Below are positions 3,092-17,577 of a stretch of DNA of 64,000 nucleotides, one piece after another. Within the stretch, counting starts at the first letter, position 1; every line of letters starts with the position of its first letter. The DNA comes from a virus. Both the position numbers and the translations under genes were made by a program. The DNA is taken from IMG/VR virus record IMGVR_UViG_3300035686_000005, positions 1 through 64,000 of that record; one strand, 5' to 3'. Under the pieces are notes generated by a model, which did not search any database, was not told the DNA's origin, and saw only the letters and a list, made by a program, of their open reading frames with translations.

Positions 3092-3787
3092 ATGACATTT
3101 GACTACAACCAGTATCAACAAGACGCAATTGATAGTAAGGAGAATCCTTTACCTAAAAAGCTTCTGCCAGGGTTTGACCGTGTTGGAATTGACATAGAGG
3201 TGTTCGCGTTACCGGGTCTTGAAACTGACCATAAGCGGTACATCTTGAGCCAAAGAAGTTTAACTTCGGTCGTAAAAAAGAGCCACACTTCAACTGCTAA
3301 CTTTTTTAGTTCTGATGAGTTTAAAAGTGTTTTTGGAAATAGTTTTACACCTTTAGAATTTTATGTAAAAAAATGTAATTCTTCAATACTAGGAATACCT
3401 TTAGAAGTTGCCATTATATATTGGACGAGACAAGCATATAAAGGAAACAAAGCTGCCCAAGATATTATTGATACTTTAATAGGGATTAAATTAGATAAAG
3501 TAAAAACTAAAAGAAAGCCCCCAAAAACTGCAAGTAAAGGTTTTATATACTTTATCTCTAATGGCAGTTCTGTTAAAGTAGGCTTTTCAAAACAGCCAGA
3601 AAGACGTTTATCGGATTTACAAACAGCACACAATAAAAAATTAGAACTTTTGGAAACTATTAAAGCTGAGCATAAAATAGAAAAAATGTTTCATACAAAA
3701 AATAAACACATAGCTTTATCGGGTGAGTGGTATCCCATAGAAAAGTTGGAAGTTATCAGACAGGAAATACAGAGTCTATTGTTATAA
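3092..3787 (+). CDS. T5orf172 (GIY-YIG-superfamily-like) domain protein
   Basis: C-terminal GFIYFISNGSSVKVGFSKQPERRLSDLQT...GEWY fits the T5orf172/MUG113 pattern; extended -10 promoter at 2975-3001. Confidence 0.6.
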   Translation: MTFDYNQYQQDAIDSKENPLPKKLLPGFDRVGIDIEVFALPGLETDHKRYILSQRSLTSVVKKSHTSTANFFSSDEFKSVFGNSFTPLEFYVKKCNSSILGIPLEVAIIYWTRQAYKGNKAAQDIIDTLIGIKLDKVKTKRKPPKTASKGFIYFISNGSSVKVGFSKQPERRLSDLQTAHNKKLELLETIKAEHKIEKMFHTKNKHIALSGEWYPIEKLEVIRQEIQSLLL

Positions 3788-3882: not shown

Positions 3883-3922
3883 ATTGCAGACATGCATTGC
3901 AGACATCAGCCATTGCAGACAT
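3883..3922 (+). repeat. three direct copies of ATTGCAGACAT
   Basis: copies at 3883-3893, 3896-3906 and 3912-3922; the third encodes the C-terminus of 3906-4742. Confidence 0.85.
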
Positions 3923-4742
3923 ACTTGCCAAGCAACGCTTTAAGCTTTGCAACTTCCGTCTCTAAGTCTGCATTAGATTTTTTCAAGTCTGCATTCTCAG
4001 CTTCTAATTCCCGTATTCTTTGCAGATTCCTTGCACCCGTGTTGTGACAGCCAGGATATCGTATTTCGTCTGGATACCTGTGATGAAGTTCCTCTACTGC
4101 CTTGTACACAAACTTTTGGGTTAAGTCCCTATCGTTTGCAATTTCCAACGATCGCCTCCATGCCATTCTAAGCAAGTCAATCTTGCGTCTTGTTGGTTCT
4201 ACTTCTTGAGGTTTTCGATATTGGTTGCCAGGTATCGTCTGATAGACCTCGATTGCATTCAGGGGGAAGAGGACATACATTCCATAACTACAGATTGGCA
4301 AGCCTAGCAGGTTCTCATATCTGGCACTCATCCGTTCTGAGAAATAAGCGCTCAGGTGATGCTTTGGTAACTCGTGTTTACAGAAGTCTTTAAAAGAATT
4401 GTATTCCAATGCTTGCCAGCCGCCTAGTAATTCAATTTCCCATAGAATGGATCGTCTAGTTTTCCACAGTTTTTCCTTATGTTTTTTATCTTCTTCTTCA
4501 GCTGTTTTTAGTTTTGTTACCAGCTTTTCAACTTTTTTCTTAATGGCAATTCCGATTTTAACAGGTTCTTTTTTACAAAATCCTCCGTTTGCTTCTCTTG
4601 ATGCGCTTTGCAATACTGCTGCTTGATGAGCTGTTACAGTAACGCTTCCAAGAGTTTTTTCTAATTCTGATGTGTCTAGTTTGGTATAAGAACTTAACTG
4701 ATCGACAGGTGCTTTATATACTTTAATACTGCCAGGTTTCAT
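3906..4742 (-). CDS. hypothetical protein with C-terminal coiled coil (possible regulator)
   Basis: 278-aa lone minus-strand gene, divergent from 4803-5045; heptad-like IRELEAENADLKKSNADLETEVAKLKALL. Confidence 0.6.
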   Translation of the reverse strand: MKPGSIKVYKAPVDQLSSYTKLDTSELEKTLGSVTVTAHQAAVLQSASREANGGFCKKEPVKIGIAIKKKVEKLVTKLKTAEEEDKKHKEKLWKTRRSILWEIELLGGWQALEYNSFKDFCKHELPKHHLSAYFSERMSARYENLLGLPICSYGMYVLFPLNAIEVYQTIPGNQYRKPQEVEPTRRKIDLLRMAWRRSLEIANDRDLTQKFVYKAVEELHHRYPDEIRYPGCHNTGARNLQRIRELEAENADLKKSNADLETEVAKLKALLGKYVCNG

Positions 4743-5364: not shown

Positions 5365-5377
5365 TAAAGTAACTTTA
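5365..5377. repeat. TAAAGTWACTTTA copy (W=A)
   Basis: perfect; last TTA is the minus-strand stop of 5375-6064. Confidence 0.95.
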
Positions 5378-6064
5378 GATAAAACCAAACAGATCAGTAT
5401 AGTCCAATTCGATCGCTCTGTTCGAAGTTCCTAAAGATTTAGCAACGCTGTATTGTTGCCCGATAGGATTAGATGATGGAATATTTGAAGCTGGCAACAC
5501 CTCAACAAAATTACCATTTGATGTTAACTGGCAACCTATACGAACAACTCCAGTATTGAGTGCTTGAATGTATGCTTTAACCCATGTGTTGGCTGTTAGC
5601 GTTCCGATTGCTAAAGAAGTATTAGCACCGTTATTTGAACAGACACCATACAGAATATTATCAGAATTATTTAAAGACAGATAAATACCATTAGTTGGTA
5701 TAGCTGCAATGATACTATTACCAAAACCTAAAATCCATTGTGTTGTTTGAGTGTTATCTCCTATTGTGGGAATTCTAAATTTAAATCTAAGTAGCCAATT
5801 AAAATTAGCTGAATTATTTGCACCTATGAGGAGATTAGAAGGTGAGTGTACGCTAGCATAACCCGTAGATGTTGTCCCACACGTAATCCTTGCAATTCCT
5901 GGTATAGAAAGAATAGGGGCAAGTCTTACGACTGATGCACCCGTACCAGAAATAACATTGAGCAATCCTGTGCTAAATCCTAGTGAGGGATCGCCCAGAA
6001 AATGCTCAGTTATTCGATATCTTCGATCTAATTCATCAAGGACTAATTGCTTTTCTCTAAACAT
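5375..6064 (-). CDS. hypothetical protein (virion-like composition)
   Basis: 229-aa Asn/Ser/Thr/Gly-rich ORF; first of three co-oriented minus-strand genes inside the + block; stop lies in motif 5365-5377. Confidence 0.6.
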   Translation of the reverse strand: MFREKQLVLDELDRRYRITEHFLGDPSLGFSTGLLNVISGTGASVVRLAPILSIPGIARITCGTTSTGYASVHSPSNLLIGANNSANFNWLLRFKFRIPTIGDNTQTTQWILGFGNSIIAAIPTNGIYLSLNNSDNILYGVCSNNGANTSLAIGTLTANTWVKAYIQALNTGVVRIGCQLTSNGNFVEVLPASNIPSSNPIGQQYSVAKSLGTSNRAIELDYTDLFGFI

Positions 6065-6073
6065 TATTCAAAC

Positions 6074-6787
6074 CTACTCAAAGCTTGAATAGGCGGCTAT
6101 CACATTGTCGTCAGTTGTCAAACTATATCCCGCATTCGTCGCATTCCAAGTAATAGTTTTACCTGAAATGCTGAATTTTGCCGATGCACCTCCCAAAGAT
6201 GTAATGATTTGTCCATTCACATACAACCGGACTGTAGCGGGTACGCTGGGCGTTTTAGCTAGTGCTGCTAAAGTGTTTGTTGCGGTAACAGTAAGCAACT
6301 CTAACGAAAATGTCCCTGCGCCCGAAACTTTTGGATCTTGGCTGATTATCTTTGTAGGAATTGCGATCGCATAATCAGCCGGAAGTCTAGCCGCATCGTA
6401 TCGATAGTTAAAATCGATATCAATTGCGTTAGCCGATCCGAAACTGTAAGCGGTTTCAGTTCCGTTTACTGAAGTGAAGAACGTTACCGTGTATACACCC
6501 GCAGCTTCTGTAAGCCTACCGTATACCTCGTTACCGTTAGTATCGGTATACTTCATTTTTGTGGCGTTACTTTGAACTTGGACTAGGTTATTTGTCCCTG
6601 TTGTGATCACACCTACCGAGTCTTCATCAGCCGACACTTGTACAGGAACTGCGACACCTTTACGCCCAGCCGTTGATAATGCTGTGGTCAAAGCTGCCGT
6701 TATATTTTGCGATCCTCCTGTGACATTAGTATTCGCAATCCGGATATTTCCGGATAAAATCCAGTTAAGCTGCTTTGACTTAATCAT
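6074..6787 (-). CDS. hypothetical protein (virion-like composition)
   Basis: 237-aa Thr/Ala/Gly/Asn-rich ORF; overlaps the upstream gene by 4 nt. Confidence 0.6.
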   Translation of the reverse strand: MIKSKQLNWILSGNIRIANTNVTGGSQNITAALTTALSTAGRKGVAVPVQVSADEDSVGVITTGTNNLVQVQSNATKMKYTDTNGNEVYGRLTEAAGVYTVTFFTSVNGTETAYSFGSANAIDIDFNYRYDAARLPADYAIAIPTKIISQDPKVSGAGTFSLELLTVTATNTLAALAKTPSVPATVRLYVNGQIITSLGGASAKFSISGKTITWNATNAGYSLTTDDNVIAAYSSFE

Positions 6788-7362
6788 TGGTATACTACCT
6801 CTACAATATCAGTGTTGTCGAGAAACATCGGTCTTAGCCACGTTAAAGTTACTTTATCAATCCGATAATCGACGGGATAAAGCGCTTTAACTCCATTCAC
6901 AGTAAATAAACTTAAATGTGGTTTTGTTGGTTCTTTAGTCAAAACGAATACAGTCTGTCCTAGTTGAGGCACAAACATCTCCCTATAAGAGGGGGACACA
7001 ACACCCGTGTCAGGTTCATCAGGGTTGTTGTTTATGGGATCGAGAATTACTCCCCTAGCCCTAAGTGTTGCAAGATCTATGTCTGCATTGCTATCAGAGG
7101 GAAGAGTGAACAGGAACCCATCTTTTTTGTCACCTCTGAACACACATTTATACGTGGTGGGTAGTCCAGATTTTGATTCGTTACACCAAAGATTAGTTTC
7201 AAAAGTGCCATTAACGGCAGTCTTGACTATGAAAGTCTGTTGGGGGTAATTGGTTTTATTGTCACGGTCATAGCTGCCAGGATGTAGCCTGAATTCTATT
7301 TCCAGACCCCCCCAAGCTTCCCCATTAATTCGTTCGACCTTACCCTTGACTTTTCTTAGCAC
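6784..7362 (-). CDS. hypothetical protein
   Basis: 192 aa, GTG start; the 16-mer box shared with the capsid-operon leader lies 26 nt upstream; internal motif copy read DKVTLTW. Confidence 0.6.
   Translation of the reverse strand: MLRKVKGKVERINGEAWGGLEIEFRLHPGSYDRDNKTNYPQQTFIVKTAVNGTFETNLWCNESKSGLPTTYKCVFRGDKKDGFLFTLPSDSNADIDLATLRARGVILDPINNNPDEPDTGVVSPSYREMFVPQLGQTVFVLTKEPTKPHLSLFTVNGVKALYPVDYRIDKVTLTWLRPMFLDNTDIVEVVYQ
6844..6856. repeat. TAAAGTWACTTTA copy (W=T)
   Basis: perfect; inside 6784-7362, read K-V-T-L. Confidence 0.95.
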
Positions 7363-9344: not shown

Positions 9345-9381
9345 CATGGACATATACCCAAAAAGATTTTTTCAGAAACGC

Positions 9382-9411
9382 TTGACAGCTTGGTGCATAA
9401 GTAGCTACTAT
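9382..9411 (+). promoter_or_regulatory. sigma70-like promoter
   Basis: TTGACA-N18-TACTAT, 36 nt upstream of ATG 9448. Confidence 0.55.
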
Positions 9412-9447
9412 AAATACAGTTACAAATCACGGTTCAAGGAAAAACAC

Positions 9448-10347
9448 ATGGCTAACGCAACTTGGAATTATGGGACTGGCGTCAATGTTGAAGGTTTATC
9501 AACTTCTGAAATGCTGACAGCTGCTAATCTGGATTGGAATGTCAAAACATCACCTCTATTTTTTGGTGAGTTTGGGCAGCATGAAGTGCCAGGAATTAAG
9601 GGACTCTACCGAGAAGACACTAACGATTTTATCGATACTTTCAGTAACAGAGAGGTACGCAACAATAAACAAATTGTCAAGTTTTTTGAGAACCTTCTAA
9701 ACTTAGCCGATCTAAAAATAGAGACACTAGGACATATAAACAGCCGTGTAATTTACGCTAGCGCTCGGATGAGTCAGTACGATACAAACCTTAAAAATGT
9801 TGGTGATGTTACGCATCAAAGAATCATTCTCACAGATTCTCATCAGAATAATCAGGGATTTCGAGTTTACACACACGGCACAAGGTTGGTATGCACCAAC
9901 GGTATGGCTCAAAAAGTAAGCCAACAAGTTGGTATTGTGTCCCATACCGGGACGCTTAACAAAGACAAAGCACGGTTGCTTCTTAATGCTGCGGTTAACA
10001 CAGTAAAAAGACAAGCCAACGTTACCGAGTTTCTTGCAGAAAAAGCAATGACTATTCAAGAAGCTCAGTTGCAGCTGATTACTGCTTTTGGAAATCCGGA
10101 AAAATCCATTGATGAGCAACCAGCAATGGTTAAAACTTGTCTAGAGTTGTTTGATGGTAAAGGTCAAGGATCAGAACTGTTAAGCGCATACGGTACAGCA
10201 TACGGACTTCTTCAAAGTGTTACAGAATGGCAATCGCACCATAGCACGGCTAAAAGTCAGATTAACAGGTTTGAATCAATCCTTTCAGGAACATATGCCA
10301 CAAAAGCTATGGCTTTTGAGAAACAGCTAGTGAGAGCTTATCGATAA
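9448..10347 (+). CDS. DUF932-family protein
   Basis: start moved to ATG 9448 (AAGGA 8 nt upstream) because promoter 9382-9411 lies inside the longer ORF 9346-10347; DSHQNNQGFRVYTHGTRLVCTNGM resembles the DUF932 core. Confidence 0.6.
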   Translation: MANATWNYGTGVNVEGLSTSEMLTAANLDWNVKTSPLFFGEFGQHEVPGIKGLYREDTNDFIDTFSNREVRNNKQIVKFFENLLNLADLKIETLGHINSRVIYASARMSQYDTNLKNVGDVTHQRIILTDSHQNNQGFRVYTHGTRLVCTNGMAQKVSQQVGIVSHTGTLNKDKARLLLNAAVNTVKRQANVTEFLAEKAMTIQEAQLQLITAFGNPEKSIDEQPAMVKTCLELFDGKGQGSELLSAYGTAYGLLQSVTEWQSHHSTAKSQINRFESILSGTYATKAMAFEKQLVRAYR

Positions 10348-10426: not shown

Positions 10427-11236
10427 ATGGAAGAAGCGATCGCAATGTGGGAAGGTGGAAAAGTCCTTAATGCAAGAAAAGGAAACTATGAAGACTACCG
10501 TGTTAGAGGTATGTTGTGTATGCACTGTCACCAAAGCGTATTTTGGCGTAAGTCATATAAAAAAGATGATGTCATATACAGCGCTGCTTGGTGCCATTTT
10601 CAAATTACTGAAGATACCAAGCTATGTGAGAAGAGACACCTCACAGACGAAACTAAGCGGCTTGTAGAGAAGCTTCAGCCAAAGGCTAGAGGGCAGCGTT
10701 TAGCTCTATTCAATTCGAGATTTTGGGACATCTTCTCACACGATAAGGACATACCCAAAGATTTTTACTTAGGGGTTAAAGAAAAAGCAATGTATGAACT
10801 GTCAGAACATTGTCGAAAACGATGGGACGTGAAGCAAATATTAAGCGTGTTGCCACAAAGGGTCAAAGACATTACTGATGCTGAGAACATCAGAAAAAAT
10901 GCATTAATACAATTTGCCAACCTAACAGAAAAGGACATCGAAATATTGTCCACACACTTTTTAGATATGAAGTATAACGTTTTACGTTACAAAATTTTGT
11001 GCGAAGTTGTTGAATGGCTAGGCACATCTAGCGCAAAAAATAGCTTTCATAAGGTCACAACCTTGGCATTTTTTAACGCGGTTGAGATAGCACCAAAACC
11101 AGTCAGAACAAATATGGTTGCAAACTTTATCCTAAATAGTCTCATAATGACTAAATGGGATCAAAACTTAGATGAGTTACCACAACCCAATAAGGGTATA
11201 GGTTTTGGACAGCCTAAAGTAACTTTAAAGAAATAG
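10427..11236 (+). CDS. hypothetical protein with CxxC zinc-finger-like N-terminus
   Basis: 269 aa, CMHCHQSVFW...WCHF...LCEKRH; C-terminus encodes motif copy PKVTLKK. Confidence 0.6.
   Translation: MEEAIAMWEGGKVLNARKGNYEDYRVRGMLCMHCHQSVFWRKSYKKDDVIYSAAWCHFQITEDTKLCEKRHLTDETKRLVEKLQPKARGQRLALFNSRFWDIFSHDKDIPKDFYLGVKEKAMYELSEHCRKRWDVKQILSVLPQRVKDITDAENIRKNALIQFANLTEKDIEILSTHFLDMKYNVLRYKILCEVVEWLGTSSAKNSFHKVTTLAFFNAVEIAPKPVRTNMVANFILNSLIMTKWDQNLDELPQPNKGIGFGQPKVTLKK
11215..11227. repeat. TAAAGTWACTTTA copy (W=A)
   Basis: perfect; last codons of 10427-11236 (KVTL); 9 nt upstream of the -35 at 11237. Confidence 0.95.
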
Positions 11237-11265
11237 TTGCACAATGCTGCATTTGTAGTTATAAT
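11237..11265 (+). promoter_or_regulatory. sigma70-like promoter
   Basis: TTGCAC-N17-TATAAT; near-identical layout to 61268-61296 (TTGCACAAT..ATTTGTAGTTATA). Confidence 0.6.
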
Positions 11266-11293
11266 CGATTTAGTGAGAGATTAGGCTAGGCAA

Positions 11294-11743
11294 ATGACAA
11301 GAGTATCGGCTAAATACATTCGGAGACTGGCAACACAATACGGGATTGAGATTACTGAACCGCTCAGATCTCAAGCCATCAAAGCTAAGTATGTTGAATT
11401 GATAGCCGATGCAATTTGCCAGGAACAAGGACGCATTGCTTACCAAGAGAAAGTTTTAGCATTTCAGGCAGAAATTGAAGAAGCCTGTGGATGTTTCTAC
11501 CATATGACAAATTTCAATAGTCTAATGCAGACTTGCGAAATCAGATACACAGCTGAAAAAACAACTGTTGGATATATCTCACAAGGAATGTTAGGTGTGT
11601 CCTATAGGCTCAGCTCAGATTGCAGAAATGTTTCACGCCCAGCTAAGACTGCTTTTGATGCAGCTGATGCGATAATCAACTGGCATATGAACCAACTCAA
11701 GCACTCACTATTTCCAGCTAAAGTAACTTTAGGTCAAAAATAA
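11294..11743 (+). CDS. hypothetical protein
   Basis: 149 aa; TTGCAC-N17-TATAAT promoter at 11237-11265; C-terminus encodes motif copy AKVTLGQK. Confidence 0.6.
11719..11731. repeat. TAAAGTWACTTTA copy (W=A)
   Basis: perfect; last codons of 11294-11743 (KVTL); 17 nt before ATG 11749. Confidence 0.95.
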
Positions 11744-11748
11744 AAATC

Positions 11749-13296
11749 ATGCTTGCAACAACAAACAATCAGTCTCAATCTCTTGTAATTTCCAATAGAC
11801 TTACGACTGAGCAAATAGAACTAATCAAACGCACTATTTGTAAAGGTGGAACAGACGACGAATTAAATTTGTTTATCCAACAATGCAACAGAACCGGATT
11901 AGATCCTTTCTCTAAACAAATCTATGCTGTAAAGCGTTATGACAGCAAGGCTAAAAGAGAGGTAATGAGTGTTCAGGTTTCTATAGATGGCTTGCGTTTA
12001 AACGCTCAACGTACAGGAAAATATCGAGGGCAGTTAGGAGCTTTTTGGTGTGGAATGGATGGGGAGTGGAAAGATGTTTGGTTGTTAGACAATCCCCCAG
12101 TAGCTGCCAAAATTGGCATTTTACGCTCTGATTTTTCAGAACCGCTTTGGCAAGTAGCCAGATATAAGAGTTATGTTCAGACCGTTCAGGGTGGCAGTCC
12201 TAATTCATTTTGGGCAAGAATGCCTGATATCATGTTGGCAAAATGCGCTGAAGCATTAGCGCTTAGAAAAGCGTTTCCTCAAGAGCTTAGCGGATTGTAT
12301 ATCAATGAAGAGATGCCCCCTGAATTTATCGAGGTCGAAAGCAACGTAGTTGTAGAACCGGAAGATGCACCGCAAAAAGAAGAAAGGGCACAACCCAAAA
12401 AAACCATTGTAATACCTACAAAAGAATCTGAGAAGACAACAGAGAAATTTGACCGGGATTACTGGATGCAACAAACCACCGATGAGCTGAAACGTCTTAC
12501 ATGGACTTCAGACAAAGGAAGAGACTATTTGATTGCAAACTTCAACGGTAAGCGTTCACGTCAAATTTTAACTGATGAAGAGTTGAAAGCATTTGCTCTC
12601 ATGCTTAAGGAAGAGAAAGCTCAAGAAAAATTAAACATTTCTGATGTTACTCTTTCTTACTTGAATGATGTTGCAAAGTTTTTTAACATCAGTCCACAAG
12701 TGTATCAAACCGAGATTAAGCGCTATACCGGAGATATGACTCAGATAATTTTTGAGTCTATTATGCGCGTCATGGTTACGGCGTTTACTAAGGATCGTGG
12801 TCTTGATTCTAAAGGAATTTGGGAAAACTTTGTAGAAGATGTTAAGCCACAAAAATACTCCTTTGAGTCAATCCAATCATGGGTTAATAAATTCTCCGAG
12901 ATCCCGTCAGATGATTCCGTACAATCTCCTGAAGAGTTCAAAGACCCTAACTATCTGTATGAAGTTGCAGAGATTCTATATGTAGATTCAGACGATCTTG
13001 ATGCAGAGATTGACAAGTATCAAGACAAATTAAGTCATTCAGACTATTTGGAAATTTTGGTTTGGATGGCTAAATGGTATGCAGATGCTGAAGCTAAGAA
13101 TGTTGAAATGGCTGAAGAAAGTTTCAATAAACATGTTGCTGTCAATGGTTATGCATTAGAAAGCATCGAAACTTGGAAAGATGCTTTTTACACAGCAACC
13201 GACAACGATTACTTACCTGTTGAGGAATATGAACAAACAAAAAGACAAAATCTCAAGCTTCTTGACAAAGATGTTACAGATGCAATAAGCGACTAA
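11749..13296 (+). CDS. Bet/RecT-family single-strand annealing protein with long C-terminal extension
   Basis: [42 protein letters not shown]...[16 protein letters not shown] fits the phage Bet N-terminal pattern; terminator at 13317-13340. Confidence 0.7.
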
Positions 13297-13316
13297 CAAC
13301 AATTCAACTGACAAAA

Positions 13317-13340
13317 AGCGCTCTTAACGGGGCGCTTTTT
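13317..13340 (+). terminator. intrinsic terminator
   Basis: AGCGCTC...GGGGCGCT followed by TTTT; follows the Bet gene. Confidence 0.65.
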
Positions 13341-13346
13341 ACTTTC

Positions 13347-13359
13347 TAAAGTTACTTTA
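13347..13359. repeat. TAAAGTWACTTTA copy (W=T)
   Basis: perfect; last TTA is the stop of the TIR gene (minus strand). Confidence 0.95.
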
Positions 13360-14004
13360 TTCTATTCCATTGATAATCTTAAGTAGTTTTCTGAAGCTTC
13401 CTTCAAAACTATCTGATTCTCTGAAGAATAGCCAATTGATATTTGCAATAGTATCTGGGATGTCTGCAATGATTTCTCGCCTCAAGATAGGAATAATTTT
13501 TTTACCACGTATTCTTGCATACTCTAGTTCATTAATGCAGACATCAGATATTGCATAGTCTTCAGACAGGACACATATGAAAAAGCATGATGAGTCGATG
13601 CCTTCTATAATGACCTCTTTCCAATAGTCGCTTGATTGTATATCTTCATAGTCTACCCAAGCATCATGTCCAGACTTTTTAAGCTGGTAGTGCAACCGTT
13701 CTACAAAGTCTTTATCTTTTCGGCTGTAAGAGATAAACAAATCATTGCAGAGCGCATACTTCTTTATGACTGTTGTAATCAATCCGTTTGCAACTATCCT
13801 ACGCTCTCCGGACATTGACTTAAGATGTGTCGCAACTATACCAAGATGTTCAACAGCACCAACAAAGCTACCTATTTGGATAATGTCACCTTTTTTGTAG
13901 TAGCCTCTAGTCCGGACAATTGCGCCCCTAATTAGATCGTTGATTAAGTCTTTGCAGACATACACGGTTGCAGCTGCCAGAAATACAGACAGATTTTCAT
14001 TCAT
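13357..14004 (-). CDS. TIR-domain protein fused to an MscS-like beta-domain
   Basis: C-terminal LFISYSRKDKDFVERLHYQLKKSGHDAWVDYEDI...VCINELEYA...KIIPIL (TIR_2 pattern, Glu retained); N-terminal GDIIQIGSFVGAVEHLGIVATHLKSMSGERRIVANG (MscS beta-domain pattern). Confidence 0.75.
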   Translation of the reverse strand: MNENLSVFLAAATVYVCKDLINDLIRGAIVRTRGYYKKGDIIQIGSFVGAVEHLGIVATHLKSMSGERRIVANGLITTVIKKYALCNDLFISYSRKDKDFVERLHYQLKKSGHDAWVDYEDIQSSDYWKEVIIEGIDSSCFFICVLSEDYAISDVCINELEYARIRGKKIIPILRREIIADIPDTIANINWLFFRESDSFEGSFRKLLKIINGIE

Positions 14005-14008
14005 TTTC

Positions 14009-14021
14009 TAAAGTAACTTTA
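14009..14021. repeat. TAAAGTWACTTTA copy (W=A)
   Basis: perfect; between divergent starts 14004 (-) and 14045 (+). Confidence 0.95.
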
Positions 14022-14044
14022 GAGCTATACTTAAATAGTAATTG

Positions 14045-14434
14045 ATGGAAGGATATATGGAAACTACGGGATTAGAACTATTGAGAAGCCATGCAAGATC
14101 TTTAGAAGATCTCATCAAAAAGATGACTGATGATGAAGACGTGATACTTATAGATACTGGCTGGTGTTTAGGTCTTGTTGCCCAAAATATTCTTGAATGT
14201 TTTGAGATAATAGCATCAGAATTGCCCGAAACATCAAAACCTTTTTTAGCTAATGATATACATACAGTAGCAGAGCTTTTAGAGAGGGCAGCATTTATTG
14301 CTACCGAATCAGAATCACACATTGATTTGTTGGCTATGTCCTACTTGATAGCTAGAGCTTATGCCAAAACCCAATCAATAGATAGAAAGTATGGTCAGCA
14401 CGTCATACAAGTATTAGAAGCTGAAAGCAATTAA
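14045..14434 (+). CDS. hypothetical protein
   Basis: ATG 14045 (track starts at TTG 14042); divergent from the TIR gene with only motif 14009-14021 between them. Confidence 0.55.
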   Translation: MEGYMETTGLELLRSHARSLEDLIKKMTDDEDVILIDTGWCLGLVAQNILECFEIIASELPETSKPFLANDIHTVAELLERAAFIATESESHIDLLAMSYLIARAYAKTQSIDRKYGQHVIQVLEAESN

Positions 14435-14505
14435 ATTTATTTGGCTACATTGTAATAATTTTAAAGTCCTGCTTAAAATATAAGTGGGACTTTCAATTTG
14501 TAGAC

Positions 14506-14739
14506 ATGACTAACCAATACTTTCAAAACTGTGATTTAACTGGATGTCAGTTTTACCGATTTGGTAAAGAATATATTTTTCATGTGCCACCTAAACACCC
14601 AGATCGTTTTATTATCAGGCGAGATCTTCTAGACATGGGATTAATAGAAGAGAAGGATATGTTGCAGATTCATTTTGTCATCAAGCCAACAGCTGAGCAA
14701 TTTGATATTTTGAATTCAGCTTTTGGAATAGAATTCTAA
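14506..14739 (+). CDS. hypothetical protein
   Basis: 77 aa; ATG is fused to TTGTAGAC (14498-14505); motif begins right after the stop. Confidence 0.55.
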   Translation: MTNQYFQNCDLTGCQFYRFGKEYIFHVPPKHPDRFIIRRDLLDMGLIEEKDMLQIHFVIKPTAEQFDILNSAFGIEF

Positions 14740-14752
14740 TAAAGTAACTTTA
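14740..14752. repeat. TAAAGTWACTTTA copy (W=A)
   Basis: perfect; begins right after stop 14737-14739; 4 nt upstream of the -35 at 14757. Confidence 0.95.
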
Positions 14753-14756
14753 TGGC

Positions 14757-14785
14757 TTGCATATTGCAAACATAATTGTTAGTAT
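14757..14785 (+). promoter_or_regulatory. sigma70-like promoter
   Basis: TTGCAT-N17-TAGTAT. Confidence 0.55.
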
Positions 14786-14811
14786 TTACTTGTAGTCACT
14801 CAATACTTCTC

Positions 14812-15687
14812 ATGCAAGATTTAACCCAACAAGCAAGAATGAATCAGAACACAAATCTAGAAGGCTTTAAGCTAATCAACAAGGCATTAGAAGGCACCGA
14901 CTTAAAGTGCAGGATATTTTATGACAGTTTCAACGATTCCTATTACTGGGAACACAATCAGATCAGATGCGATCCGTTTGATAATGTATACGATGCAATT
15001 GCTGGATTGATTTGGCATATTCAGGCTTTAGCCAATTCAAAAACTGAAGATGATCTAACAAGATCCATGTATACGCCTCAAGAGTTTATTGAGACAAGAA
15101 AAAAAGAGCATTTTGCTGTCTTCAATAAAATCTCACGAGCATTAGACAGCACGGCTGTTGATTCTGCAATAAATTATGATTCGTCCACCGATCAGTTTCA
15201 TTGGAGACATAAAAGAATAACCAGTGATGGGTACTTCAACATTTATGAAACCATAGCGGGTTTAGTTTTTCATCTAGAATCTTATGAAGTTTCCACAAAA
15301 GAGTTAACCTTTTTTGATTCGGAGTTTATCAAAGCTTTGGTTGATGCGCTTAGAACAACCGGGTTTAGCCTTGAATATGATTCAACACACAACACCTATA
15401 GCTGGACTCATTTAGACCAAGATACCCGCTTAGGAACTTTTATCGACCTGATACCGGGAATAAGAGAGGTCTTGAAGTATTGCAACTCTGAAATTAAGAA
15501 GACTCAGAACACTCAAAAAACTTTTGAGAAGTTGGCAGATACAGAGCGGAAATTAACCAGCCAAGAAGCTTATATACGAAAGCTGGAATTGCAAAACGCT
15601 GATTTGAGCGCAAGAAACGAAGAGTTGAGAAGAATAAACGATGTGATAATAAAATCACTGTCCAACAAGGCTTTAGATACTTTTTAA
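14812..15687 (+). CDS. hypothetical protein with three internal repeats and a C-terminal coiled coil
   Basis: start moved to ATG 14812, downstream of promoter 14757-14785; repeats YDSFNDSYYWEHNQIR.., YDSSTDQFHWRHKRIT.., YDSTHNTYSWTHLDQD.. Confidence 0.6.
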   Translation: MQDLTQQARMNQNTNLEGFKLINKALEGTDLKCRIFYDSFNDSYYWEHNQIRCDPFDNVYDAIAGLIWHIQALANSKTEDDLTRSMYTPQEFIETRKKEHFAVFNKISRALDSTAVDSAINYDSSTDQFHWRHKRITSDGYFNIYETIAGLVFHLESYEVSTKELTFFDSEFIKALVDALRTTGFSLEYDSTHNTYSWTHLDQDTRLGTFIDLIPGIREVLKYCNSEIKKTQNTQKTFEKLADTERKLTSQEAYIRKLELQNADLSARNEELRRINDVIIKSLSNKALDTF

Positions 15688-15726
15688 TATAGACTAGAAG
15701 CGTCTGGAAAATTTACGAGTTAACCC

Positions 15727-15750
15727 GCCTCCCTAGCTGGAGGCTTTTTT
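15727..15750 (+). terminator. intrinsic terminator
   Basis: GCCTCC-CTAGCT-GGAGGC followed by TTTTTT. Confidence 0.7.
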
Positions 15751-16104
15751 GTGCCTGGATTTAGAAGGTAGTAAATGATACGCCTATAAGGGGTTATACG
15801 TAGAAGACACACAAATATATCTCCACATTAGTAGAACCTGTTGAGCGCTTTAGTAGATGCCAGTAGGGAGATATTTAGAAAAGATATCCATTCGACCACC
15901 ACACCAAAGGACATACCCACATACGTTAAATCATGTTGAAACCCTCACCATCAATCCTTAGATGCCAAAAATGCCCCCCAAAACGGGCACAAAAATGAAA
16001 AAACGGGTGCTTCATAATTTGAAATGCTTAAAAATTGCCGTGATCACGTGGATGCGTTAGATGCTTAGACAATATCCAAAAAATCTATTAAGCCTGCGCA
16101 TTCA

Positions 16105-17264: not shown

Positions 17265-17277
17265 TAAAGTTACTTTA
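17265..17277. repeat. TAAAGTWACTTTA copy (W=T)
   Basis: perfect; last TTA is the stop of 17275-17577 (minus strand). Confidence 0.95.
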
Positions 17278-17577
17278 TGAATTTTTCCTGCCGTATTGTT
17301 TAAAAACTGTAGGTTTACTATTCTTAGCACTTTCAATCGATTGGGAACACACTAAGGAATATTGAGCATACAGATTAAAGCATTGCTCCCATGTTAAACC
17401 TAGCCGCCTAGCTTCGACCTCAATCATGTCTCGATACAAATCTCTGTTTTGATCGAGATTTCTTTGTACGCTTTCAGCTATATAACTCCTCATGGATTTT
17501 TCCTGGATCTTTACTACCACGGCTAGATACAATGCCTCTGGATCGGGTAAGTCGAATGAACCGTTACTGATGCGCAT
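17275..17577 (-). CDS. hypothetical small protein (possible regulator)
   Basis: 100-aa lone minus-strand gene divergent from 17680-18180; stop lies in motif 17265-17277. Confidence 0.55.
   Translation of the reverse strand: MRISNGSFDLPDPEALYLAVVVKIQEKSMRSYIAESVQRNLDQNRDLYRDMIEVEARRLGLTWEQCFNLYAQYSLVCSQSIESAKNSKPTVFKQYGRKNS

Follow-up and report, generated by a model that had tools for sequence, protein, structure and literature searches.

Locus and Domain Architecture

The subject of this work is a single gene in a 64,000-nucleotide stretch of viral DNA (IMG/VR record IMGVR_UViG_3300035686_000005, positions 1–64,000; the whole stretch is called the window below). The open reading frame (ORF) 13357–14004 lies on the minus strand, starts with ATG and encodes a protein of 215 residues (P0001), in which a TIR domain follows the beta-domain of MscS mechanosensitive channels. 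Both flanking genes are on the plus strand: RecT (11749–13296) on the left and a 130-residue ORF (14042–14434) on the right. Since an in-frame TAG is located two codons 5′ of the ATG, the ORF is not extendable and the N-terminus of the protein is fixed. The features of the locus are presented in Table 1.

Table 1. Features of the MscS–TIR locus (positions are those of the window; TM, transmembrane helix).
Feature	Position	Strand	Evidence
Coding sequence of the truncated MscS–TIR protein P0001, 215 residues, stop codon included	13357–14004	−	ORF list, Pfam
Residues 1–33, one long helix: 13-residue hydrophobic stub (TM3a remnant), then an amphipathic TM3b-like segment	13906–14004	−	AlphaFold2
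Residues 34–84, MscS beta-domain	13753–13905	−	Pfam, Foldseek
Residues 85–215, catalytic-type TIR domain	13360–13752	−	Pfam, Foldseek, PDB matches
Codon of E159, putative catalytic glutamate	13528–13530	−	Alignment with Cat1 E74
Copy of the genome-wide palindrome TAAAGTWACTTTA with W = T, reading TAAAGTTACTTTA; its last three nucleotides serve on the minus strand as the TAA with which the TIR gene ends	13347–13359		Motif search
Copy of the same palindrome with W = A, reading TAAAGTAACTTTA; 4 nucleotides 5′ of the TIR gene ATG and 20–35 nucleotides 5′ of the divergent plus-strand ORF	14009–14021		Motif search
Divergent neighbour ORF, 130 residues (context only)	14042–14434	+	ORF list
Hairpin with A-run and T-run flanks between the convergent RecT and TIR genes; candidate bidirectional intrinsic terminator	13313–13340		RNA fold

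TIR_2 (PF13676) was found on residues 90–208 (E = 1.5e-26, 93.7 bits against a Pfam cut-off of 28 bits, profile positions 2–122 of 122), and MS_channel_2nd (PF00924, the MscS beta-domain) on residues 19–78 (E = 1e-10, 42 bits against a cut-off of 20.2 bits). The AlphaFold2 model of the protein, a monomer built from a 38-sequence alignment, has a mean predicted local distance difference test score (pLDDT) of 90.5 and comprises a helix (residues 3–33), the beta-domain (41–83) and the TIR domain (85–213). In Foldseek searches of the PDB, the TIR half resembled the TIR domains of SPARTA TIR-APAZ, AbTir, SARM1 and TRR-2 (probability 1.00, root-mean-square deviation (rmsd) 2.0–2.6 Å). The N-terminal half was matched to MscS of T. 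tengcongensis (3t9n) with an rmsd of 1.1 Å over 80 columns, and further to YbiO, YnaI and E. coli MscS. At the sequence level, the PDB matches of the TIR domain were Cat1 (the best, E = 2.5e-8), PdTIR and AbTIR.

The first-pass annotation, made from the letters of the DNA, had described a TIR domain fused to an MscS beta-domain in a minus-strand ORF within a plus-strand block, and had named hidden Markov model searches and structure prediction as ways to check the fusion. The ORF list agrees with the orientation, both profiles score above their cut-offs, the predicted structure recovers the TIR fold together with the beta-domain, and the active-site alignment (see below) points the same way. 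Judged by its sequence, P0001 is a member of the TIR superfamily with the hallmarks of the catalytic class. Its assignment as an MscS channel was rejected, because neither a transmembrane paddle nor a complete pore helix nor the C-terminal alpha-beta domain was found when each was looked for.

Among viral structure models (BFVD), the best match is A0A1G5S9Z4, a viral protein of 208 residues, aligned over 200 columns (E = 4.6e-7) with a TM-score of 0.41, an rmsd of 8.6 Å and 14% identity. This entry is perhaps a further example of a small viral protein with two domains, one half of which is TIR-like.

The MscS–TIR Family and the Origin of the Short Form

P0001 belongs to a family of seven sequences (the window copy included), all from metagenome assemblies. 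Homology searches gave P0002, P0012 and P0013 (363–369 residues), which are 43–46% identical to the whole window protein; P0064 (383 residues), P0066 (378 residues) and P0120 (475 residues) came from an exhaustive profile search that covered 1.84 billion representative proteins. The family size is a lower bound, as it counts single-stretch two-domain matches among the best 150, a list crowded by multi-TIR proteins. TIR_2 and MS_channel_2nd are present in all seven members, and the Pfam scan added nothing else except TIR and one CAP12 TIR match. The MscS C-terminal alpha-beta domain (PF21082), which is present in ordinary MscS matches, was found in none of the seven by either precomputed annotation or the Pfam scan.

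The other six members (363–475 residues) are full-length proteins comprising TM1, TM2, the TM3a pore helix, TM3b, the beta-domain and the TIR domain; that is, the transmembrane body and beta-domain of MscS are retained and TIR replaces the alpha-beta domain. Three or four strongly hydrophobic segments are seen in these longer members, and the model of P0002 (pLDDT 93.1) has MscS, YbiO, YnaI and MSL1 as its top matches over 160–275 columns, the transmembrane body included. The junction KKYALxNDxFISYSR and the C-terminus SFEGSFRxLLKxIN are common to the family, which indicates that the fusion arose once. Since the more distant P0064, P0066 and P0120 are all full length, the 215-residue form is the derived one, shortened at its N-terminus. 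It lacks TM1, TM2 and the greater part of TM3a, which all six relatives have: the protein starts within TM3a, where a further six residues are deleted relative to the family. A tblastn search with the transmembrane regions of P0002, P0012 and P0013 revealed no leftover N-terminal coding sequence near the gene or elsewhere in the window. The identity of the window protein as a truncated MscS–TIR member, and its descent, can be regarded as nearly certain.

The three parts of the window protein have diverged to different degrees. The N-terminal helix, a remnant of TM3, is 15–27% identical between the window protein and its relatives (39–73% among the six full-length members). The beta-domain is 37–49% identical to those of P0002, P0012 and P0013, which share 55–61% with one another, and the TIR domain 48–51%, against 52–70% among the same three. 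These identities indicate that the beta-domain and TIR stayed under constraint and that the membrane constraint is gone.

No match with both domains was obtained by tblastn of P0002 in 50,697 GenBank phage records and 72,556 plasmids, and pattern scans based on the family alignment gave no further members in IMG/VR, the JGI metagenomes or the GTDB species genomes. A scan of the GTDB species genomes with the P0064/P0066 alignment returned just ordinary Polyangium MscS-like genes and one Cytophagales TIR. The nearest TIR-only relatives are 42–45% identical, and those with organism names come from filamentous cyanobacteria (Leptolyngbya, Phormidesmis TIR-WD40). No account of an MscS–TIR fusion was found in full-text literature searches, consistent with the earlier remark that no such fusion was known to have been described. 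What is new is thus a rare, undescribed MscS–TIR family, in which the window copy is a sensor-less truncation, a point that the first-pass annotation had overlooked.

The four full-length members with readable contigs have phage-like or mobile-element-like surroundings. In L001 the MscS–TIR gene comes after genes for a tail protein and a tail fibre. The L004 contig carries a homologue of the ParB-like gene of the window and small helix-turn-helix genes; the L005 contig carries DUF932 (a homologue of window ORF 9346–10347) and a phage-type Dam, and in L006 an FHA gene is located near the MscS–TIR gene.

A small ORF of 91–98 residues lies directly 3′ of the full-length gene in L001 (3410–3685) and L004 (1149–1445). 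It is 83.5% identical between the two contigs, against 62% for the MscS–TIR gene itself. It has no PHROGs match (L001), no precomputed Pfam match (L001, L004) and no homologue in the window, and could be a partner or mere synteny.

Active Site of the TIR Domain

The NADase (nicotinamide adenine dinucleotide-cleaving) site of Cat1 is lined by S7, H8, N9, N10, D33, S68 and E74, and growth arrest is abolished in the N10A, D33A, S68A and E74A mutants (PMC12162218). In an ungapped alignment the corresponding positions of the window protein are S92, Y93, S94, R95, D118, S153 and E159. Four of these (S92, D118, S153 and E159) are identical to the Cat1 residues S7, D33, S68 and E74; Y93, S94 and R95 differ. 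No variation at D118, S153 or E159 occurs among the seven family members. E159 stands in the sequence C-I-N-E-L, and its alignment with Cat1 E74 bears out the earlier statement that the glutamate of the CxxEL position is kept. The alignment speaks well, if indirectly, for catalysis; the window TIR is somewhat more likely than not to be competent and can be called a putative NADase.

The Carrier Phage and Its Probable Host

The window carries RecT (Pfam E = 5.8e-32), a portal protein, a family-B DNA polymerase, an endolysin domain and Baseplate J, which supports the earlier description of the TIR gene as phage-borne. The DNA polymerase matches solely the Nostoc, Anabaena and Dolichospermum myophages N1, A-1(L), Elbi, YongM, YongM2 and Dfl-JY23, with 30–36% identity; therefore, the host is probably a filamentous cyanobacterium of the Nostocales. 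The phage is probably virulent. About 60 window ORFs were scanned, and neither an integrase nor NAD-salvage, Macro or Nudix genes were found among them.

Three metagenomic contigs encode the identical protein. Two of them, independent of each other, are 61,283 and 65,390 bp long; in the latter the gene is located about 0.6 kb from a contig end. These two appear to represent a single genome in permuted form, circular or terminally redundant, and the window is close to a whole genome. The lineage is deeply divergent and known from metagenomes only (GCA_034690465.1 contig JAXMNB011671963.1; Logan SRR11830169).

Possible Mechanism of Action

The ring of MscS, located beneath the membrane, is built by seven subunits through their beta-domains and TM3b helices. 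For SARM1, Cat1 and AbTir, contact between TIR domains is required before the NADase site can form. Considering the MscS ring together with such contact-built sites, the MscS-derived part could function as a platform for TIR oligomerisation. By analogy, the TM3b/beta-domain part of the window protein would gather several TIR domains; their contact would build the active site, and NAD+ would then be consumed, with ADP-ribose (ADPR) or a cyclic ADPR-type nucleotide as a possible product. In the full-length relatives TIR assembly could plausibly be coupled to the state of the channel or the membrane, e.g., to tension or the entry of phage DNA. In the window copy the membrane coupling would be lost, and activity would be set by expression or by a further ligand or partner. 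The most likely role would be in phage–host or phage–phage conflict in a Nostocales-type host, acting via NAD+ or TIR signalling, as a weapon or a counter-weapon.

The overall explanation, in which P0001 is a conflict effector that oligomerises, consumes NAD and has lost its membrane sensor, is given about an even chance, and a number of observations weigh against it. In the BB-loop of the window protein, DIQSSDYW, the Pro/Gly of four of the six relatives is missing. The Trp four residues N-terminal of the Glu in Cat1 is V, Q or E in the whole family; a Trp at this position also occurs in plant TIRs. Non-enzymatic TLR TIRs also retain Glu at the aligned position, and an aligned Glu alone is no proof of catalysis. 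The virulent lifestyle makes a classical prophage abortive-infection role awkward. No promoter for the TIR gene was revealed by a consensus scan. Finally, the short form is a single sequence, and as the two contigs compared are identical across the region, selection is not directly measurable.

A more specific version of the effector explanation is doubtful at present. It assumes that MscS–TIR proteins are membrane-state-gated NADases with a heptameric channel sensor, which would respond to mechanical or electrical disturbances of the inner membrane (for example DNA injection or the onset of lysis) with TIR assembly and NAD+ cleavage or signalling. The phage copy would then be soluble, stripped of the sensor and scaffolded by the ring, and would be used as a deregulated NADase in taking over the host or as a dominant-negative inhibitor of the full-length proteins.

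The descent from a full-length MscS–TIR protein shifts the mechanistic question. TIR domains are central immune effectors in bacteria, plants and animals, and the key question is how they are switched on. Among the switches known so far are nucleotide ligands, Argonautes guided by nucleic acids, sensors of the NLR type and phage proteins that bind directly. An MscS-type channel as a TIR partner would, if true, bring in the physical condition of the membrane as a new input and the heptamer ring as a new scaffold. The phage-like and mobile contexts of the family, and one phage keeping the sensor-less half, bear on why phages carry TIR domains, which are uncommon in isolated phages and whose role there is unclear (PMC10404802). 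The family has very few members, all of them metagenomic, and the claim could be cheaply tested by gene synthesis.

Decoy, Membrane Anchor or Remnant

P0001 could also be a counter-defence decoy or poison subunit: with its surfaces for oligomerisation and TIR contact retained, it would co-assemble with the full-length MscS–TIR proteins of rival phages or with TIR immune proteins of the cyanobacterial host and block their activation, so that catalysis is irrelevant. It is an N-terminally truncated homologue and retains the beta-domain, the part that forms the subunit ring of MscS; the nearest TIR-only relatives (42–45%) include multi-domain TIR proteins of filamentous cyanobacteria, and for an apparently virulent phage anti-defence would be more natural than abortive infection. 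However, S92, D118, S153 and E159 are kept at approximately 50% overall divergence, which is needless for a pure decoy. No full-length partner is known from the same host or phage, and no precedent was found in the literature searched. This role is regarded as unlikely.

The first-pass annotation had seen a single hydrophobic helix at the N-terminus and had regarded the protein as membrane-associated. Developed into a full explanation, a single N-terminal transmembrane helix would tether the beta-domain and TIR to the inner membrane and serve superinfection exclusion or the timing of NAD depletion. At the N-terminus, a stretch of hydrophobic residues (LSVFLAAATVYVC) does precede an amphipathic helix whose hydrophobic moment is approximately 0.7 over residues 16–28, the full-length relatives are clearly membrane proteins, and a short stub could occupy one leaflet or bundle within an oligomer. 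Nevertheless, the hydrophobic stretch is only 13 residues long, and the maximum Kyte–Doolittle value over 19 residues is 1.44, below the threshold of 1.6. Relative to the family, six TM3a residues are deleted; Arg, Thr and Arg have appeared in the TM3b segment, and the divergence of this region to 15–27% identity indicates a lost membrane constraint. With TM1, TM2 and most of TM3a gone, the window protein has, by these predictions, no credible transmembrane span. It is at most peripheral, or its stub is buried in an oligomer; neither the single hydrophobic helix nor the membrane association was upheld, and a membrane tether is quite improbable.

A third explanation treats the gene as a decaying, functionless remnant of a full-length MscS–TIR gene, truncated by a rearrangement or by the gain of a palindromic motif. 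P0001 is the sole short member among seven, its N-terminal helix is highly diverged, and its ATG is 4 nucleotides from a motif copy with stop codons in two of three frames. Against decay stand the 215 intact codons, the conservation of the beta-domain and TIR, which is almost that of the full-length relatives and shows no rate acceleration in TIR, and the confident structure model (pLDDT 90.5). The gene also has standard start and stop punctuation, a terminator-like hairpin at its 3′ side and native codon usage, and no N-terminal coding leftover exists anywhere in the window. A mere remnant is accordingly held to be very unlikely.

The Palindromic Motif

The two motif copies that flank the TIR gene are exact reverse complements. 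The first-pass annotation had read them as a 13-bp inverted repeat that marks a single-gene cassette. The positions and the exact complementarity stand, but the complementarity is automatic, because TAAAGTWACTTTA is a 13-bp palindrome except for its central base, and the motif occurs throughout the genome. The 64-kb window contains 67 matches with at most one mismatch, against 0.23 expected, and 66 of them are exact copies. The exact copies span 458–63391 (e.g., 28812, 29408, 32546 and 40068) and often read cTAAAGTWACTTTAg.

The motif is found at 47 of the 80 gene junctions of the window. Both junctions are occupied in 28 of the 79 internal genes, and in eight of these the central bases are opposite. 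The TIR gene thus follows the ordinary punctuation of the genome. The first TAA of the motif is the stop codon of 14 genes, the TIR gene included, and at several junctions of the structural block the motif ends 3–6 nucleotides 5′ of the next ATG. Fifteen copies lie deep within ORFs, all of them in the sole stop-free frame, which encodes KVTL. The motif could be the binding site of a dimeric DNA-binding protein or a form of mRNA punctuation. Its central base clusters regionally: A in 16 of 18 copies at 1–16 kb, T at 16.8–21.6 kb, A at 22.3–24.6 kb, T in seven of eight copies at 26.3–33.6 kb, A at 34.3–38.3 kb, and mixed thereafter. No rule tying the central base to the gene strand was found among the window copies.

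These data leave hardly any room for a mobile single-gene cassette with 13-bp inverted repeats, recently inserted in reverse: the opposite orientation of the gene to its neighbours and the opposite central bases at its two ends speak for it, and against it are the 66 copies that likewise bracket 28 of 79 internal genes and also occur within ORFs, the native composition of the gene (GC 0.378 against a genome mean of 0.383; codon adaptation index 0.708 against 0.734 ± 0.039), the lack of any transposase or integrase near it, and the L001, L004 and L005 contigs, each with its own high-copy palindrome, copies of which flank the MscS–TIR gene in L001. The inverted-repeat cassette was consequently rejected, since the repeat is not element-specific, the GC content and codon usage are native and no recombinase was found.

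No related phage genome was found for a presence/absence comparison: megablast of 11000–16000 against GenBank phages gave no match, and a RecT-based scan of IMG/VR gave none. In the JGI metagenomes RecT matched eight loci on short high-GC contigs, where just the RecT core is common and the motif is absent.

Similar phages each have a high-copy repeat of their own, located at gene boundaries wherever the position was checked. Within 42 kb of Anabaena phage Elbi (MZ078141.1, 23028–64938; L015), tttTAGAGTSACTCTAaaa occurs 22 times, and CCCCGGAGTCA frequently comes about 20 nucleotides after it. Nostoc phage N1 (L021) has 19 copies of CCCCCGGAATCAA, without such a palindrome. L001 and L004 contain CCCGGTACCGGG, plus TTACCWWGGTAA or GAACCWWGGTTC, and L005 contains four copies of TCTGCTAGCAGA. 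The window, Elbi, L001 and L004 have palindromes with a GT(N)AC core in common.

Comparison with Known Systems

The beta-domain and TM3b-like helix of P0001 are similar in both sequence and fold to those of MscS channels (E. coli MscS, 3t9n, YbiO, YnaI). Unlike these channels, P0001 is devoid of TM1, TM2 and most of the pore helix, and the family has TIR where PF21082 would be. The NCBIfam MscS models score 30 bits on P0001, whereas their cut-offs are 400–500.

Cat1, AbTir and SPARTA TIR-APAZ are the best PDB matches of P0001 in sequence or fold, with four Cat1 active-site residues identical, and by analogy the same logic would be expected, the active site forming only when TIR domains meet. 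For assembly these systems use CARF, APAZ/Ago or a coiled coil, whereas the putative assembly module of P0001 is the MscS beta-domain; a cyclic-nucleotide or nucleic-acid sensor is lacking in P0001. In its expected mode of action P0001 most resembles TIR NADases activated by a ring or filament, such as SARM1, Cat1 and AbTir. SARM1 is another ring scaffold with several regulated TIR NADase domains, and its TIR fold matches P0001. Eight SAM domains make up the SARM1 ring, and an ARM domain, which binds nicotinamide mononucleotide (NMN) or NAD, controls it. In P0001 a heptameric ring of channel-derived beta-domains is presumed instead, and there is no homology beyond TIR.

Thoeris ThsB has the TIR domain in common with P0001 (PADLOC ThsB matches of 4e-7 and weaker). 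Membership in Thoeris was rejected: ThsB_TIR (PF08937) scored 15.1 against a cut-off of 21.2 and NCBIfam ThcB4 30.9 against 220, and no ThsA-type effector is adjacent, the neighbours having no SIR2, SLOG or Macro match. CBASS and Pycsar were rejected as well, since P0001 contains just the beta-domain and TIR, the PADLOC SAVED_TIR match is confined to the TIR part, and the scan of window ORFs gave no cyclase. Retron-TIR membership was rejected on sub-threshold or TIR-only matches.

SpbK of ICEBs1 is, like P0001, a single TIR gene on a mobile element, for which NADase-type chemistry is expected; it is reported to be triggered by the phage protein YonE (PMC12847820). SpbK resides on ICEBs1, an element expressed in uninfected cells, whereas the carrier of P0001 is an apparently virulent phage and its partner domain is channel-derived. 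The PADLOC spbK match of P0001 is marginal (E = 0.0035). Kiwa, a membrane-embedded defence that senses phage-induced membrane changes (PMC11785009), is a conceptual precedent for a membrane infection sensor and is relevant to the full-length MscS–TIR relatives. There is no homology to it: Kiwa has neither TIR nor an MscS fold, and the window protein has no membrane part.

Neighbouring Gene, Expression Signals and Other Window Genes

The true start of the divergent ORF 14042–14434 is more likely the ATG at 14045 or 14057. This ORF had earlier been suggested as a possible partner of the TIR gene. It has no Pfam, PADLOC, PHROGs or NCBIfam match, no significant PDB match, and no homologue in L001, L004, L005 or L006. 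The idea of a conserved partner was dropped, since the ORF has neither a family match nor a homologue beside the four readable relatives.

The hairpin between the RecT and TIR genes has a 10-bp stem (−12.4 kcal/mol, z = −2.46, minus-strand RNA fold) and was missed by a consensus terminator scan. The TIR gene is probably a transcription unit of its own: as a lone reverse-strand gene with a terminator-like hairpin 3′ of its stop, it appears fitted for separate expression control.

The majority of window ORFs could not be placed in a Pfam or PHROGs family, and no tRNA or Rfam families were found in the window. An orphan D12-class N6-adenine DNA methyltransferase is encoded at 1050–1868 on the plus strand (Pfam E = 7e-58) and could serve anti-restriction. 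A T5orf172/MUG113-domain protein is encoded at 3092–3787 (plus strand). The early region, mostly on the plus strand, contains other reverse-strand islands (5375–7362, 3906–4742 and 17275–17577) without PADLOC matches; in the first of these, the gene 5375–6064 (minus strand) encodes an SO2946-like C-terminal domain (PF22237).

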